Origin: Alphaproteobacteria bacterium
GTDB taxonomy: Bacteria > Pseudomonadota > Alphaproteobacteria > UBA828
Direction: 5' to 3'
Length of the DNA stretch: 64,000 bases
NCBI GenBank assembly: GCA_965221125.1
Contig: CBDCRW010000005.1
Location: 256,001-320,000, forward strand
The translations under genes and the position numbers were made by a program. The first letter of the stretch is position 1. Every line of letters begins with the position of its first letter. The notes under the pieces were generated by a model that was not told the DNA's origin, did no database searches, and saw only the letters and a list, made by a program, of their open reading frames with translations. Below are positions 17,772 through 22,790 of the stretch, piece after piece.

Positions 17772-18125
17772 AGCGATTTCCGACCTTACGAGATCACTGC
17801 GGTCCGAACGTTCCCACCTCCCCCTGTCCCCCTCCCGACTCTTTCATTTCCCTCAGACGCCGGGCGCTCGCTCCGCTCGATCGTGCGCTCCGCGCACGTG
17901 GCCGTGCGACGCTTCGCGCTACGCGCGCGGCGCGGTCGCGCCGTCCGGGCCTGCGGCCCGGCAGGCGGAGGGGGGACGTCGACGCCGATGGCGGAGTCTC
18001 CCTCTCCTCCCCTAGGGGAGGAGAGGGCCGGGGAGAGGTGGGGGTTTCTTTTCGGGCCGCACTGCACGCAAATTCGGACCCTGCAGCGAGTGGGTCGGAT
18101 GCTATCCGGTCGGATCGTGCCCTAA
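17768..18125. repeat. MITE-like palindromic repeat, family A copy 2, with a ~127-bp internal insertion
   Basis: Starts CTAGAGCGATTTCCGACC, shares the internal blocks of 7319-7556, and ends GGTCGGATCGTGCCCTAA. Its ends coincide with the stop codons of glpK and the phaB paralog. Confidence 0.85.
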
Positions 18126-18844
18126 TACATATGCGTGCCGCCGTTCATGGTGATGGTGGAGCCCGTGGTCCACGCCGCCTTGTCGTCGACGAGGAAGAGC
18201 ACGGCATGGGCCACCTCGTCCTCGTGGCCCATGCGGCGGATGGGGGACTTGTCGACGATCTTCTTCGCGATCCGCTCCGGCATGTTGCGCATGAGGTAGG
18301 TGTCCACGTAGCCGGGCGCCACGGTGTTGACCGTGATCCCGTGCTTCGCCCCCTCCTGCGCGAGCGCCTTGGTGAAGCCGTGCATGCCGGCCTTGGCGGC
18401 GACGTAGTTGACCTGGTTGAGCTGGCCGGCCTGGCCGTTCATGGAGCCGATCTGGATGATGCGGCCCCAGCCGCGCTCCATCATGCCGGGGTAGACCGCC
18501 TTCGACATGTAGAAGACGGAATCGAGATTGACCCGGACGACGCGCTGCCACTGGTCGTCGGTCATGTTCTCGAACTTGTTGTCGGAGACGGTGCCCGCGT
18601 TGTTGACGAGGATCTCGACCGGGCCGTGCTCGGCCTCGATGGCTGCCACGCCCGCGCGGCAGGCCTCGCCGTCGCTCACGTCCCACTTGAGCGCGGGGAT
18701 GCCGGTCTCCTCCGTGAAGGCGGCGGCGCATGCCTCGTCGGCATGGTAGTTGACCACCGCCGGGTGGCCCGCGTCCTTGAGCGCGCGCGCGATGGCGGCG
18801 CCGATGCCGCGCGTGCCGCCCGTAATCAGTGCCAGCCGTGCCAC
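18122..18844 (-). CDS. phaB: Acetoacetyl-CoA reductase-like SDR (second PhaB paralog)
   Basis: TGGTRGIG, LVNNAG, NGQAGQ...NY.AAKAG, LAQEGA, APGYVDT, NGG. Confidence 0.8.
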   Translation of the reverse strand: MARLALITGGTRGIGAAIARALKDAGHPAVVNYHADEACAAAFTEETGIPALKWDVSDGEACRAGVAAIEAEHGPVEILVNNAGTVSDNKFENMTDDQWQRVVRVNLDSVFYMSKAVYPGMMERGWGRIIQIGSMNGQAGQLNQVNYVAAKAGMHGFTKALAQEGAKHGITVNTVAPGYVDTYLMRNMPERIAKKIVDKSPIRRMGHEDEVAHAVLFLVDDKAAWTTGSTITMNGGTHMY

Positions 18845-18875
18845 GCCCGCCTCCCCTCAGTCCGTGCCCTCAGTA

Positions 18876-19598
18876 TTAGTACATGTGGTGGCCGCCGTTG
18901 ACCGAGATCGTGGACCCGGTGATGAAATCGGCGTCGTCGGCGGTGAGGAAGAGCACCGCGCGCGCGATGTCCTCGGCCCGGCCGAGCCGGCCCACGGGGA
19001 TGGACGCCACGATCTTCTCCAGCACTGCTTCCGGCACCGCGCGCACCATGTCGGTGTCGACGTAGCCGGGTGCGACCGCGTTCACGGTGATGCCGTGGCG
19101 CGCGCCCTCCTGCGCCAGCGCCTTGGTGAAGCCGTGGATGCCGGACTTGGCGGCGGCGTAGTTGACCTGGCCGTACTGGCCGGCCTGGCCGTTGATCGAG
19201 CCCACGTTCACGACGCGGCCGAACTTGCGCGCGCGCATGCCGGGGAAGGTGGCGTGGCAGAGGTTGAAGCAGGAGCCGAGGTTGGTGTCGAGCACCGCCT
19301 GCCATCGCTCCGGCGTCATCTTCTGCAGCGTGCCGTCCCGCGTGATCCCGGCATTGTTCACGAGGATGTCGATGGGGCCGAGCTCCGCCTCGATCCGCTC
19401 CACGCCCGCCTCGCAGGCCGCGAAGTCGCTCACGTCCCACTTGTAGACCGCGACGCCGGTCGCCTCGCGGAAGCGCTCGGCCGCCTCGTCGTTCGCGCCG
19501 TAGTTCGCGGCCACCCGGCAGCCGGCGTTCTTCAGCGCCTGGGAAATTGCAGCGCCGATACCGCGCGTTCCGCCCGTCACCAGTGCGACCCGATCCAT
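18876..19598 (-). CDS. phaB: Acetoacetyl-CoA reductase
   Basis: TGGTRGIG, NNAGITRD, SINGQAGQYGQVNYAAAKSG, IPVGRLG, NGGHHM. Confidence 0.93.
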   Translation of the reverse strand: MDRVALVTGGTRGIGAAISQALKNAGCRVAANYGANDEAAERFREATGVAVYKWDVSDFAACEAGVERIEAELGPIDILVNNAGITRDGTLQKMTPERWQAVLDTNLGSCFNLCHATFPGMRARKFGRVVNVGSINGQAGQYGQVNYAAAKSGIHGFTKALAQEGARHGITVNAVAPGYVDTDMVRAVPEAVLEKIVASIPVGRLGRAEDIARAVLFLTADDADFITGSTISVNGGHHMY

Positions 19599-19711
19599 TC
19601 TCTCTCTCCCGGCAATGATGCGCGCCGCCGGGAGCCGACTCCTCGGCGGCGCGCGGCCCTCATATGCGCTCGCGCCCGCGCATTTTCAAGCGCTGGTGCC
19701 GATAATTGGGA

Positions 19712-20932
19712 TCAGGCCGCGGCGTGATCCGCGATCCAGGCCGCGAGCTTGCGCCAGAGCAGGCGCTTGGCGCGGGGACTTGCCATCATGCCGATGTGGC
19801 CGAGGGGCGGGCGCCAGGTCTCCACGTGCGGCAGCGCATCGCTCAACGCCTCCGCCGAGGCCGGCGGGACGATGCGATCCCGCGCCGGCACGACGTTGAG
19901 CGCCGGGCAGGTTATGCGCTCGGGCCGCACCGCCTCGCCGCCCACCCGCCAGAGCCCGCGCGCGGGCGCGTTCCCGCCGTACCAGTCTTCGAGGCAGGCG
20001 CGGGCCACGGGGCCGGTGAGCGGCACGGCGTCGTTGAGCCAGTCCTCCAGCGCCACGAAGTTGCGCGCCGCGGCGCAAGCCGGCGGGAGATCGGCGAAGG
20101 CCGAGAACTTGCGCGCCGCCAGCAGCGGGTCGAGGGCGGCGAACATGGCCTGCAGCGCGTCGGGCGGCAGCTGCCCGAGACTCTCGTTGAGCAGGGTGAG
20201 CCCCGGCCGGTGGGCCGCGATCAGCCGTGCCTGATGGCCACCGTCGGCCCGAAAATCCCAGGGCGTCGCGAGCAGGACGAGCGCGGCGACGTCGGCGCGG
20301 GCGGCCAGCGGCAGCACCATGGTGCCGCCCATGCAGTAGCCGGCGAGCGCCAGCGGCCGGCCCGCGTGCCGGCGCACCGCCTCCAGCGCCGGCGCGAGGC
20401 GGCCGAGGATGTAGTCGTCGAGGCCGAACGCGCGCTCTTCCGCGCCTGGCGCGCCCCAGTCGAGCAGGTAGGGGCGGAGGCCGCGGCCCCGCAGGTAGCG
20501 GGCGAAGCTGCGCTCGGGCCTGAGGTCGAGGATGTAGGCGCGGTTGATGAGCGAGGGTACGAGCAGCGCGGGCGCGCCGGCCGCCTCGCCGCCGAAGGCG
20601 AGGACCCGCGTGGTGCCGGCCTGCCAGAGCACCGGCGGGTCGGCGAGGCGGCGGCGGTAGGGATGCGCGCGGTAGCCCTCGATGCCGTCGAGGAAGCGGG
20701 CGATGCGGGCCGCCGCTTCGGCGCCGAGCGCGCGTGCGAGCGCTTCAGGCTCGGCCTTGGCGAGGGCCTCCTGCAGGGCCGTCGCCTCCGCCGGGATCGC
20801 GCTGCGCCAGTTGAGCGATCCGCTCCTCGCAGGCGGCAAGGCGGCGAGCGAGCTCAGCCAGCCGCCGAGCGCCATCCCCAGATGGAGGGGGAGCGGCCTC
20901 GGCCCGAGACGCGGGCGTGCCGGCGCGGCCAT
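19712..20932 (-). CDS. phaC: Short (class III-like) PHA synthase / alpha-beta hydrolase
   Basis: LVPSLINRAYILDL, YLLDWG, lipase box GYCMGG, LEDWLND, RDRIVP, GHIG (C/D/H triad). Adjacent to phaB. Confidence 0.8.
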   Translation of the reverse strand: MAAPARPRLGPRPLPLHLGMALGGWLSSLAALPPARSGSLNWRSAIPAEATALQEALAKAEPEALARALGAEAAARIARFLDGIEGYRAHPYRRRLADPPVLWQAGTTRVLAFGGEAAGAPALLVPSLINRAYILDLRPERSFARYLRGRGLRPYLLDWGAPGAEERAFGLDDYILGRLAPALEAVRRHAGRPLALAGYCMGGTMVLPLAARADVAALVLLATPWDFRADGGHQARLIAAHRPGLTLLNESLGQLPPDALQAMFAALDPLLAARKFSAFADLPPACAAARNFVALEDWLNDAVPLTGPVARACLEDWYGGNAPARGLWRVGGEAVRPERITCPALNVVPARDRIVPPASAEALSDALPHVETWRPPLGHIGMMASPRAKRLLWRKLAAWIADHAAA

Positions 20933-21110
20933 TCAGGCCGCCGGGCGCGGCGCCCGGCGCCAGCGCCGCGAGGTGCAGGGCGCCGAGGCGGAGCGTGAGC
21001 GCGCCGGGGCCTTCGTCCCGCCCGGTGCCGGCGACCTCCTCCTGCCAGAGGTCGAGGAAGCGCCGGGCGAGCGCCGCCGGGTCGTCGTCATCGCTCGTGC
21101 CCCTGCTCAT
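20745..21110 (-). CDS. Small protein overlapping the phaC 5' end (possible PhaE/phasin-like partner)
   Basis: LARRFLDLWQ N-terminus and C-terminal coiled coil RLAELARRLAACEERIAQL. TATACT lies 6 nt before the ATG. Confidence 0.65.
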   Translation of the reverse strand: MSRGTSDDDDPAALARRFLDLWQEEVAGTGRDEGPGALTLRLGALHLAALAPGAAPGGLNGRAGTPASRAEAAPPPSGDGARRLAELARRLAACEERIAQLAQRDPGGGDGPAGGPRQGRA

Positions 21111-21191
21111 GGTGCCAGTATAGCCGATGCGGCGGCCCCGTCGCGCGGCCGCCCCGTCGCGCGGCTACCTGGACATGCGGCCGCCCGGTCG

Positions 21192-21220
21192 TTGACTTGG
21201 CCGGCCCCGCCAACCATGCT
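21192..21220 (+). promoter_or_regulatory. Sigma70-type promoter for a leaderless RidA-family mRNA
   Basis: TTGACT-17 bp-CATGCT, with the ATG 6 nt downstream. Confidence 0.6.
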
Positions 21221-21226
21221 CGGGCC

Positions 21227-21751
21227 ATGACCATCGAGCAGAAGATCGAGGCCGCGGGCCTGACCCTCCCCCGGCTCGAGGACAGCTACGGCAACAACCC
21301 GGCGGGCGCGAAATACGTCTCGCACCATGCGCTGGGGCGGGTGCTCTACCTCTCAGGCTGCACGCCGTTCAAGGACGGCAAGCCCTACATGACCGGGATC
21401 CTCGGCGTGGACCGCACCATCGAGGATGGCTACGAGGCGGCGCGCCAGTGCATGCTCTGCTACCTCGGCCTGATCAAGTATGCGCTGGGCGATCTCGACC
21501 GGATGCACCGCATGCTGCACCTCACCGGCTACGTGAACTCCGGCCCCGGCTTTGCGGATCAGCCGCGCGTCATCAACGGCGCCGTGGACCTGCTCGTCGA
21601 GCTCTGCGGCCAGCGCATGATGCCGACGCGGGCCGCCATCGGCTGCCACGGACTCGCGGTCAACCATTCGGTCGAGCTGATCGCGATGGTGGAATTCGAC
21701 GGCGGCAGCGTGGCGCCGCCGCTCGCCCGCGACGGAACGGTGCTCGACTGA
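21227..21751 (+). CDS. RidA/YjgF family protein
   Basis: LYLSG, GYEAAR, GYVNS...QPRVINGAVDLL, RAAIG, VEL. Confidence 0.9.
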   Translation: MTIEQKIEAAGLTLPRLEDSYGNNPAGAKYVSHHALGRVLYLSGCTPFKDGKPYMTGILGVDRTIEDGYEAARQCMLCYLGLIKYALGDLDRMHRMLHLTGYVNSGPGFADQPRVINGAVDLLVELCGQRMMPTRAAIGCHGLAVNHSVELIAMVEFDGGSVAPPLARDGTVLD

Positions 21752-21800: not shown

Positions 21801-22790
21801 ATGAAAGCGGTTCTGTGCAGGGCCTTCGGCCCGCCCGAGATTCTTGCGTTCGAGACCGTGGACCCGCCCGCGCTCGGACCCGGCGAGGTGCGCGTCGCCG
21901 TGGCCGCGGTCGGCGTGAACTTCCCCGATCTGCTGCTGATCGAAGGCAAGTACCAGATCAGGCCGCCCTTTCCCTTCAGCCCCGGCCTGGAGTGCGCGGG
22001 CACCGTCACGGAGCTGGGAGCGGGCGCAGACGGGCCGGCGCCCGGCACCCGCGTGCTCGTCTACTGCACCCACGGCTGCATGGCAGAGGAGGTGGTGGCG
22101 CCGGCGTCTTCGGTCATCCCGATCCCCGATGCGATGCCCTTCGACGCCGCGGCGGCCTTCCCCGTGGTCTACGGCACCGGCTACCACGCGCTCGTCGGCC
22201 GCGCGGCGCTCGCCGAAGGCGAGACCCTGCTGGTGCTGGGCGCCTCCGGCGGTGTGGGGCTGTCGGCGGTGGAGATCGGCAAGCGGCTGGGCGCAACCGT
22301 GATCGCGGCCGCGAGCAGCGACGAGAAGCTGGCTCTGGCCGGGCAGCACGGCGCCGACCACCTCGTCAACTACGGCACGGACGATCTTCGCGAGCGGGTC
22401 AAGGCGCTGACCGACGGGCGCGGCGCGGACGTGATCTTCGACCCCGTCGGCGGCGATTTCTTCGACGCGTCGATGCGCTGCATCGCCTGGAACGGCCGGC
22501 TGCTGGTCATCGGCTTCGCCTCCGGGCGCATCGCCGAGGCCAGGACCAACATCATCCTGCTCAAGGAGATGAGCGTGGTCGGAGTCGCCTGGGGCGCCTT
22601 CGCCTTTCGCGATCCCGCCGCGAATCGCGCCTATTTTGCCGAATTGCTGCGCTGGTACGAGGCCGGCGCGCTGAAGCCCCTCGTCTCCCGCAGCCTGCCG
22701 CTGGCCGACGCCCCTGCGGCGCTGGCGGCGTTCCAGAGCCGGAGCGTGGTCGGCAAGCAGGTGCTGACGGTGGAGCGGCCTGGCGGCTGA
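21801..22790 (+). CDS. NADPH:quinone oxidoreductase (MDR family)
   Basis: GVNFPD, FSPGLE, GASGGVG, DPVGG, GFASG, GKQVL. Confidence 0.92.
   Translation: MKAVLCRAFGPPEILAFETVDPPALGPGEVRVAVAAVGVNFPDLLLIEGKYQIRPPFPFSPGLECAGTVTELGAGADGPAPGTRVLVYCTHGCMAEEVVAPASSVIPIPDAMPFDAAAAFPVVYGTGYHALVGRAALAEGETLLVLGASGGVGLSAVEIGKRLGATVIAAASSDEKLALAGQHGADHLVNYGTDDLRERVKALTDGRGADVIFDPVGGDFFDASMRCIAWNGRLLVIGFASGRIAEARTNIILLKEMSVVGVAWGAFAFRDPAANRAYFAELLRWYEAGALKPLVSRSLPLADAPAALAAFQSRSVVGKQVLTVERPGG

Follow-up and report, generated by a model that had tools for sequence, protein, structure and literature searches.

A small coiled-coil gene overlapping the start of a short PHA synthase gene in Alphaproteobacteria: evidence for dual coding and a predicted partner of PhaC

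Two reading frames at the 5' end of phaC

In a stretch of 64,000 nucleotides from an alphaproteobacterial genome (GenBank assembly GCA_965221125.1, contig CBDCRW010000005.1, positions 256,001 to 320,000; hereafter the window), an open reading frame (ORF) for a protein of 121 amino acids runs into the beginning of phaC, a gene for a short, class-III-like polyhydroxyalkanoate (PHA) synthase of the alpha/beta hydrolase type. Both genes lie on the minus strand. The small ORF occupies 20745..21110, with its ATG at 21110 and its TGA at 20747-20745, and phaC occupies 19712..20932, with its ATG at 20932 and a product of 406 amino acids. The 188 nucleotides at 20745..20932 are consequently read twice, the phaC frame being +1 relative to the small ORF: once as residues 60-121 and the stop of the small protein, and once as residues 1-63 of PhaC. 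Judged from the aligned orthologues, both frames are open and both are under purifying selection, and we consider it very likely that this is a genuine and ancient dual-coding region. The best explanation of the whole, which we hold to be probable though well short of assured, is a dual-coded leaderless operon in which the small protein would serve as an accessory subunit of PhaC. The original prediction, made from these letters alone, had described a 121-residue ORF with a TATACT six nucleotides before its ATG, sharing 188 nucleotides with phaC in another frame, and had quoted peptides from both frames; each of these statements is borne out by the sequence, and the interpretation built on them is supported to the extent that sequence data allow.

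Purifying selection in both frames

Stops are rare in the small frame of this high-GC DNA: across 27 phaC genes there are 87 in 10,917 codons (0.8%). One column nevertheless stands apart: at PhaC codon 63 the small frame has a stop in 25 of the 27 loci, no other column has more than five, and in nine genomes this conserved stop is the sole one in the small frame across the whole of phaC. In the window it is the TGA at 20745..20747 (minus strand), whose T is the third position of PhaC codon 62 (CCT) and whose GA comes from codon 63. A T stands at the third position of codon 62 in 25 of the 27 genes, against 8.6% T at third positions overall, and the amino acid encoded there varies among Pro, Ser and Ala. 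That one stop column should be shared although the small frame is so rarely closed argues that the arrangement is more than chance. In 80 further loci, taken from a scan of one genome per species and including some that surely belong to the same species as members of the first set, 45 have the stop at PhaC profile position 63, and its position ranges from 46 to 85 overall.

Selection on each frame was estimated with our own estimator in the manner of OLGenie, in three sets of sequences (genus, all and distant), dNN/dNS reporting on the small frame and dNN/dSN on the phaC frame. The coiled-coil core of the small protein lies at 20799..20867 on the minus strand (small-protein residues 82-104), and the same bases encode PhaC residues 24-45, WLSSLAALPxARSGSLxW. 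In this core dNN/dNS was 0.47 (genus), 0.59 (all) and 0.54 (distant), the share of bootstrap replicates at or above 1 being 0.029, 0.004 and 0.001, respectively. The corresponding dNN/dSN was 0.46-0.79, with confidence intervals that include 1. The rest of phaC, read with the same dummy frame as a control, gave dNN/dNS of 1.23-1.30 and dNN/dSN of 0.19-0.42. Over the whole overlap dNN/dNS was about 1 (0.93-1.04) and dNN/dSN was 0.51-0.59, with confidence intervals below 1.

The synonymous sites of phaC point in the same direction. When phaC was scanned in segments of 22 codons, the 12 lowest of 355 segments in synonymous divergence started at codons 12-26 in all three sets, and the minimum for phaC falls under the coiled coil of the small protein. 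Suppressed synonymous change in the overlap, which the original prediction had named as a check on itself, is thus found. Four codons show how the two frames may be reconciled. PhaC Leu32 is TTG in 27 of 27 genes (6.4% elsewhere in phaC) and supplies CTT in the small frame, a Leu at a heptad position. Arg36 is AGG in 20 of 27 (2.4% elsewhere) and gives GAG, for Glu; Gly38 is GGA in 19 of 27 (3.6% elsewhere) and provides the A of ATC, for Ile at a heptad position; Pro62 is CCT in 22 of 27 (5.8% elsewhere) and provides the T of the stop. As the alignment reads, these rare phaC codons are kept for the stop and the heptad residues of the small gene.

The overlap in related genomes

The same +1 overlap was found in 30 of 30 loci fetched from relatives, over a length of 170-230 nucleotides. 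It was found again in 80 of the 80 further loci, with lengths of 140-266 nucleotides measured from the start of the PhaC profile alignment. The labels of this second set include Ferrovibrio, Paramagnetospirillum, Phaeospirillum, Pacificispira, Pelagibius, Thalassobaculum, Oceanibaculum, Denitrobaculum, Stellaceae, Dongiaceae and Kiloniellaceae, the Alphaproteobacteria examined being mostly Rhodospirillales-type lineages as labelled. An open small frame in orthologues had also been proposed as a check, and in both sets the small ORF is open, overlapping and in the +1 relation throughout. No insertion or deletion occurs between the GPRP motif of PhaC and the small-ORF stop in the 27 aligned loci.

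A single-protein query finds the small ORF in 36 of the 61 relatives, namely in 18 of the 20 other genomes of the same genus and in members of other families and orders of the class. This type of PhaC is present in 42 of the 61, and 35 of these 42 have the small ORF by the same query. In five of the remaining seven PhaC carriers the family profile described below finds the small ORF (G023, G037, G016, G017 and, weakly, G053), the E-values of so small a search being generous.

Some lineages appear to have loosened one frame or the other. In G016 and G017 (loci L069 and L070), both of the genus of the window, the small ORF is shortened to about 78-94 codons, with the linker deleted and Gly/Pro-containing sequence in place of the coiled coil; it is still open and ends in '...RRS' or '...RRP' like its relatives, and the PhaC motif on the shared bases is largely or partly kept. 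G053 (locus L073), a genome of 45.5% GC, has a small ORF open for 173 codons, with a weak match to the family (E 3.9e-7), at a locus where stops make up 6.9% of the codons in the non-coding frame. The overlap there is 143-191 nucleotides, according to the choice among the nearer candidate phaC starts, and the coiled coil is kept and the PhaC motif on the same bases is lost. Set beside G016 and G017, where the loosening is in the heptads of the small protein, G053 looks like the opposite relaxation of the shared code. We also observed the end of the small ORF together with phaC on a 2.5-kb contig (L102) in a Chloroflexota metagenome-assembled genome; this phaC matches the PhaC profile of the window genus closely (E 1e-214), the segment of the small ORF is 83% identical, and an error of binning is the most likely cause.

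A widespread family of small coiled-coil proteins

The small protein has a fixed order of parts: an acidic N-terminus, an amphipathic helix with the motif ALARRFLDLWQ, a linker rich in Ala, Gly and Pro, a heptad coiled coil (LAELARRLAACEERIAQL in the window) and a tail. The linker is variable among relatives and the overall architecture is constant. Within the N-terminal motif L21 and W22 are invariant and L14, A15, R17, F18 and D20 nearly so (at least 90%); the LARRxLDLWQ motif that the original prediction named is therefore real and nearly invariant among relatives. Its dN/dS is 0.15 within the genus and 0.37-0.39 in the wider sets. The heptad motif LAELARRLAACEERIAxLE contains three invariant residues (R90, A99 and L101), and its a/d spacing (L-3-L-4-L-3-C/L-4-I/L-3-L) is that of a leucine zipper; by sequence, the closest entries in the PDB are designed and GCN4-type coiled coils. 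The tail is rich in Arg and Lys in most lineages and rich in Gly in the genus of the window. Outside the overlap the small ORF has a GC content of 0.97 at third and 0.59 at second codon positions, which is the coding signature of the genome.

A profile built from 26 family members was searched against a library of 1.84 billion proteins from metagenomic protein sets and matched 1268 cluster representatives at E<=1e-3, 619 of them at E<=1e-10. The best 150 matches are nearly all 105-200 amino acids long and align from end to end, and 12 of 12 inspected cluster representatives have the same architecture as the small protein of the window. No Pfam or NCBIfam model matches the small protein (the window protein with both, and 14 members with Pfam), coiled-coil models giving sub-threshold matches only, and no phasin (Phasin, Phasin_2) is among the Pfam matches at E<=1 for the window protein or at E<=0.01 for the 14 members. 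A word-based search returned 27 database proteins, all of them unnamed or 'hypothetical'.

The short PhaC and its start codon

The best curated model for the phaC product is that of class III PhaC (TIGR01836), at 181 bits, below the cut-off of 365.3; the class I and class II models score 79 and 49 bits on the same protein, and PhaC_N and Abhydrolase_1 match it as well. The TIGR01836 match covers PhaC residues 108-402 and begins at model position 48, leaving an N-terminal extension of about 60 residues relative to class III PhaC. As in the PHA synthase superfamily, there is a lipase-box Cys together with a conserved Asp and His: the GYCMGG motif and residues C200, D352 and H379 are invariant among 25 aligned sequences, and from their positions these three residues would form the catalytic triad. 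The nearest solved structures by sequence are of class I PhaC only (E 8e-15).

The overlap depends on where PhaC begins. A TGA stands directly before the ATG at 20932, so that the phaC frame cannot start further upstream. The only two other candidates, an ATG at codon 20 and a TTG at codon 32, still fall within the small ORF, and from the latter to about codon 87 the phaC frame has no ATG, GTG or TTG; a start beyond the small-ORF stop would therefore cost PhaC conserved sequence. Moreover, GPRPLPLHL (PhaC residues 10-18) is invariant in the 27 loci, where the small frame encodes variable low-complexity sequence, and its invariance indicates that PhaC is translated from upstream of it. A phaC start codon lies upstream of GPRP in 27 of 27 loci, at a distance of 5-16 codons in 26 and of 23 codons in L030. 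The original prediction would have fallen with a later start; in the window and in the relatives alike, the start lies upstream of the small-ORF stop.

A predicted leaderless transcript

Upstream of the small ORF the minus strand carries TATACT, a -10-like promoter hexamer, at 21117..21122, followed by six nucleotides (GGCACC) and then by the ATG. Of 111 loci, a pattern search located the ORF in 83 (the other 28 being left out); 74 of the 83 have TAnnnT 5-8 nucleotides before an in-frame start, 53 of them at exactly 6 nucleotides, against a background frequency of 0.0022 per position. In the upstream regions compared the hexamer is mostly TATACT, six nucleotides before the ATG; in Azospirillum the spacing is seven. 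Such spacing would put the transcript start at or beside the ATG, and the conservation of the -10 hexamer and of its distance suggests a leaderless operon transcript. A scan of 18700-21400 for two-hexamer sigma-70 promoters and for terminators returned none of either. Three other features of these upstream regions are worth recording. G053 has a Shine-Dalgarno-like AAGAGG upstream of its first ATG in place of the -10 box, AGTCAACGACGGGG recurs in most loci of the genus about 25-50 nucleotides before that box, and several distant loci have TGC-rich repeats upstream of it, for example CTGCAGCTGCGG. By analogy, AGTCAACGACGGGG and the TGC-rich repeats could be operator sites for a regulator such as PhaR.

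Predicted complex of the small protein with PhaC

Modeling of the small protein with PhaC gave a complex with a score of 0.73, the best of three controls scoring 0.05. The 0.73 mark was reached by 116 of 157 solved complexes and by 2 of 215 mismatched pairs, counts that apply only roughly here, since the present model was built on our own alignments. At least 45% of the contacts are common to the runs. The modeled interface joins residues 8-49 of the small protein, that is, the conserved N-terminal helix, encoded at 20964..21089 on the minus strand and mostly outside the overlap, with PhaC residues 13-76 and 237-273. The first of these PhaC segments is the N-terminal extension, mostly encoded in the overlap; the second would correspond, by alignment to class I structures, to the cap/dimerisation region. 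A structure search with PhaC gave class I synthases only, and hence no solved complex was found that the model could be recalling. The original prediction had proposed a miniature partner subunit or granule protein. This proposal draws its support from one complex model and from the operon context; a family link with PhaE could not be shown. We hold it rather probable that the small protein is a PhaC-binding accessory subunit.

We infer binding, translation of both frames and an effect on PHA synthesis, and propose the following mechanism. A leaderless operon transcript would encode, in this order, the 121-residue protein, the short PHA synthase and two acetoacetyl-CoA reductases. With phaC beginning inside the small gene, one base out of frame, about 188 nucleotides are read twice. 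The N-terminal amphipathic helix of the small protein would dock on the N-terminal extension of PhaC and on its cap/dimerisation subdomain. The C-terminal, leucine-zipper-like coiled coil would pair two copies, which could help to bring two PhaC molecules together, the heads of a dimeric adaptor each holding one; the active form of PHA synthases is a dimer. By analogy with PhaM and PhaF, the tail, which is basic in most lineages, may then anchor this assembly to the nucleoid or the surface of the granule. This mechanism of zipper and tail is the more tentative part of the proposal; we regard it as possible rather than probable. In such a scheme the small protein would take the place of PhaE in class III or of PhaR in class IV synthases, or would act like the PhaC activator PhaM. 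The modeled contact segment of PhaC is itself encoded in the overlap, so that the predicted partners would be locked together physically on the DNA.

Weighing of the explanations

Several observations weigh against a dual-coded operon with a PhaC-binding subunit and are gathered here. The partner in the complex model has a low predicted local distance difference test (pLDDT) score, 51-53, and binding is a prediction of that model. The dNN/dNS signal is limited to the coiled-coil core, the value for the whole overlap being below the control and not below 1. A zipper is not indispensable everywhere, for G016 and G017 have only a degenerate coiled coil whose heptads contain Gly and Pro. Two genomes with this PhaC type have no small ORF by the family profile. 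One is G028 (locus L072), in which the N-terminal motif of PhaC after GPRP is decayed; the other is G056, whose PhaC is more distant (40% identity) and matched only from residue 74. The Gly-rich tail in the genus of the window makes tethering by the tail weakest for the very locus studied here. Finally, the genome also encodes a class I PhaC, which makes the short PhaC a second synthase that may be secondary.

Among the other explanations, it is unlikely, though less so than what follows, that the small gene is real and that only its N-terminal half matters, the 62 codons within phaC being an unselected tail that stays open as GC-rich DNA seldom has stops in this frame. The low frequency of small-frame stops, 0.8% of codons, would fit, as would a dNN/dNS of about 1 over the whole overlap, the high synonymous divergence of the tail that follows the coiled coil, and the retention of the ORF by G016 and G017 after loss of the heptad pattern. 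What speaks for selection within the overlap is that a T at a third codon position of phaC keeps the stop in one column in 25 of the 27 loci, that the core combines a dNN/dNS of 0.47-0.59 with the lowest synonymous divergence in phaC, that rare phaC codons are fixed where they give the small protein its Leu, Glu and Ile, and that the genome of 45.5% GC retains the coiled coil and not the PhaC motif on the same bases.

The small ORF could instead be a translated leader that acts in cis to tune the translation of phaC, its product having no function of its own. The phaC start and the region upstream of it do lie inside the small ORF, so that ribosomes in the small frame must cross them, and a leaderless first cistron suggests an unusual regime of initiation. 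The conservation of amino acids goes far beyond what a leader needs, however, with a dN/dS of 0.15 in the N-terminal motif and residues that are invariant or nearly so across class-level relatives; the family counts hundreds of clusters of consistent length and architecture; and a specific modeled interface with PhaC passes its controls. We judge this explanation to be quite improbable.

It is very unlikely that the synonymous constraint comes from a nucleic-acid element, such as an mRNA hairpin or a protein-binding site, and not from a second frame. The nucleotide sequence is very conserved, and RNAalifold predicts a hairpin in the core at -8.6 kcal/mol, with a z-score of -3.5 against column shuffles, other segments giving 0 to -3.2. 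None of the nine predicted pairs shows a compensatory change, however, and two of the pairs are broken in 9 and 11 of the 27 loci; RNA structure was rejected as the cause of the constraint on the ground that the consensus hairpin lacks compensatory changes. A nucleic-acid element would also leave unexplained the conserved stop column, the absence of insertions and deletions, the heptad-conservative substitutions and the persistence of the coiled coil at the protein level in the genome of 45.5% GC.

A programmed +1 ribosomal frameshift that joins the two frames into a PhaC extended at its N-terminus by the LARRFLDLWQ helix is highly improbable. The +1 relation is fixed in all the loci examined, and close to the start of phaC the third-position GC signature passes over from the small frame to that of phaC, as a frameshift would have it. 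At the junction, however, no slippery or shift-prone motif is conserved beyond the genus, the small frame past the junction is under selection and ends at a conserved stop, and phaC has its own start upstream of GPRP in 27 of 27 loci. As for fused forms, one longer protein (347 amino acids) occurred among 8000 scored candidates and showed no sign of a PhaC fusion, the absence of a fused longer protein being weak evidence. That there is no real overlap, phaC starting past the small-ORF stop and its first 63 codons being an artefact of annotation, is scarcely credible: the class III model does align only from residue 108 (model position 48), leaving some 60 extra residues, roughly the length of the overlap, but there is no ATG, GTG or TTG in the phaC frame from codon 32 to about 87, GPRPLPLHL and the motif that follows are conserved as protein where the small frame varies, and dNN/dSN is below 1 in the overlap.

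Neighbouring genes

Directly 3' of phaC, at 18876..19598 on the minus strand, lies phaB, for an acetoacetyl-CoA reductase (TIGR01829, 348.1 bits; cut-off 302.1; Pfam short-chain dehydrogenase/reductase domains). It is followed by a second, tandem acetoacetyl-CoA reductase gene at 18122..18844 (minus strand; TIGR01829, 304.4 bits against the same cut-off of 302.1). On the other side two divergent neighbours lie on the plus strand, for a YjgF/RidA-like protein (21197-21751) and for a zinc-type alcohol dehydrogenase/quinone oxidoreductase (21801-22790). There is no phaA between phaC and the two tandem reductase genes, the order in Azospirillum being phaC-phaA-phbB, and no phaR adjoins the locus in the window, unlike in Azospirillum. 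On another contig the same genome has a class I PhaC (G000:C6:794730-796328; 736 bits, above the cut-off) and a PhaR-type regulator (G000:C6:753818-754000). The original prediction had remarked that no phaE is present in the window; PhaE (PF09712) was not found anywhere in this genome, which is 92% complete.

Annotation, literature and significance

The family has been passed over in annotation. On plasmid p04 of Azospirillum sp. TSH58 (locus L031), phaR is followed by a gap of 516 nucleotides without a listed gene (1958-2474), an 'alpha/beta fold hydrolase', an acetyl-CoA acetyltransferase and phbB, in a gene list taken from PLSDB, whose table is incomplete, so that the original record could read differently. 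A small-ORF homologue of about 180 amino acids, whose linker includes a Pro/Ser/Gln-rich repeat (SQGPSSQGPSFQG), extends through this gap and the first 230 nucleotides of the hydrolase gene, for which a GTG start is annotated. The NCBI annotation of the Azospirillum record omits the small gene. The short PhaCs of Alphaproteobacteria are themselves annotated only as 'alpha/beta fold hydrolase'.

In the parts seen of the report on Azospirillum baldaniorum Sp245, the plasmid enzyme AbPhbC2 (419 amino acids) is proposed to be of class IV, with the regulator PhaR assumed as its subunit, and activity is reported only for the chromosomal class I enzyme (PMC11338129). That divergent regulator gene, phaR, is a different gene from the unannotated small ORF. 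Rhodospirillum rubrum is described as having a phaC1-phaA-phaB operon from which phaR diverges, its PhaC1 sharing only 14-18% identity with the paralogs (PMC12983893, PMC4026134). Within the full-text literature that was covered, most subscription journals being outside that coverage, there is no description of a gene overlapping phaC or of the small protein. What appears to be new is a protein family in a known niche, that of a partner of a short PhaC, and an unusual encoding that is conserved across many genera.

If the proposal is correct, a conserved, unannotated partner gene would be a concrete reason why short PhaCs might behave poorly when expressed alone. The small protein would also be a new part for the engineering of PHA production. 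More tentatively still, and on the doubtful side of possible, the pair might represent an unrecognised two-component type of PHA synthase, a PhaC of ~45 kDa with a coiled-coil subunit of ~11-20 kDa that is dual-coded with its own binding segment. The small protein and PhaC would then be inseparable by recombination, and their co-evolution would be enforced at single nucleotides. Past work on, and expression of, the 'orphan' short PhaCs of this class, such as Azospirillum PhbC2, would in that case have lacked the partner protein. For the study of overlapping genes, the locus is a rare bacterial case of a long same-strand overlap, of about 188 nucleotides, with quantitative evidence of selection in both frames across many genera. 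The lineages that relax one frame or the other (G016 and G017 as opposed to G053) make it a good natural system for two proteins that share DNA. For the databases, there is a gap in annotation, the family being unnamed in spite of its 1268 cluster representatives in metagenomic protein sets.

Relation to known systems

PhaE is the non-catalytic subunit of class III synthases and a needed partner of a PhaC that lacks the long N-terminal domain of class I. Like the PhaE gene, the small ORF shares an operon with the gene of a short PhaC, which in every case it immediately precedes and overlaps; no PhaE gene is known to overlap phaC in another frame. PhaE is also larger, at about 350-450 amino acids (34 sequences) against 105-190 for the small protein. 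Neither the window protein at E<=1 nor 14 members at E<=0.01 match PF09712, TIGR01834 has no match at E<=1, and PhaE is not among the matches listed for genomes of the same class. Comparison of alignments by hhalign gave weak P-values of 0.0033, 0.00095 and 0.0026, with probabilities of 10-22%, the small family being represented by 26 and 174 sequences and PhaE by alignments of 14 and 34 from genomes of the phylum. The two motifs of the small protein fall in the same order on the C-terminal half of PhaE, which is conserved, one of the aligned stretches being 'LkRrv..Le..l'; the N-terminal part alone gave P 0.014 and the C-terminal part alone P 0.00089. By eye, some PhaE N-termini (for example 'FESLARQYW') resemble the first motif of the small protein. 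Membership of the PhaE family was set aside, hmmscan giving no match and hhalign a weak one, and homology to PhaE counts as a lead from sequence comparison and not as a finding.

PhaR of class IV, from Bacillus and of roughly 20 kDa, offers a likeness as the small partner of a PhaC of ~40 kDa that is encoded upstream of it (PMC11338129). It belongs to a different phylum, and the two are likened by description only. PhaC1 of R. rubrum shares the layout of phaR and phaC1-phaA-phaB, a likeness of gene order.

A second group of proteins resembles the small protein in its build. PhaM of Ralstonia eutropha and PhaF of Pseudomonas putida are small to mid-sized, granule-associated proteins that combine a PHA- or PhaC-binding part with an oligomerising helix and a Lys/Arg-rich, DNA-binding tail; PhaM activates PhaC1. 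The small protein is likened to them by description only, as a protein with a predicted binding part, a probable oligomerising helix and, in most lineages, a basic tail. Their genes are not dual-coded with the synthase, however, and the tail in the genus of the window is Gly-rich, not basic.

For the encoding itself, the nearest parallel is comS inside srfA of Bacillus subtilis, a long out-of-frame overlap on the same strand. In both cases the reading frame of a small protein lies wholly or partly inside the gene of a larger enzyme and is out of frame with it. The present overlap differs in being partial, the 3' half of one gene sharing its bases with the 5' end of the next, and in that both products are predicted to bind each other. 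It differs, too, in being conserved across the Alphaproteobacteria examined, with selection that is measurable in both frames.

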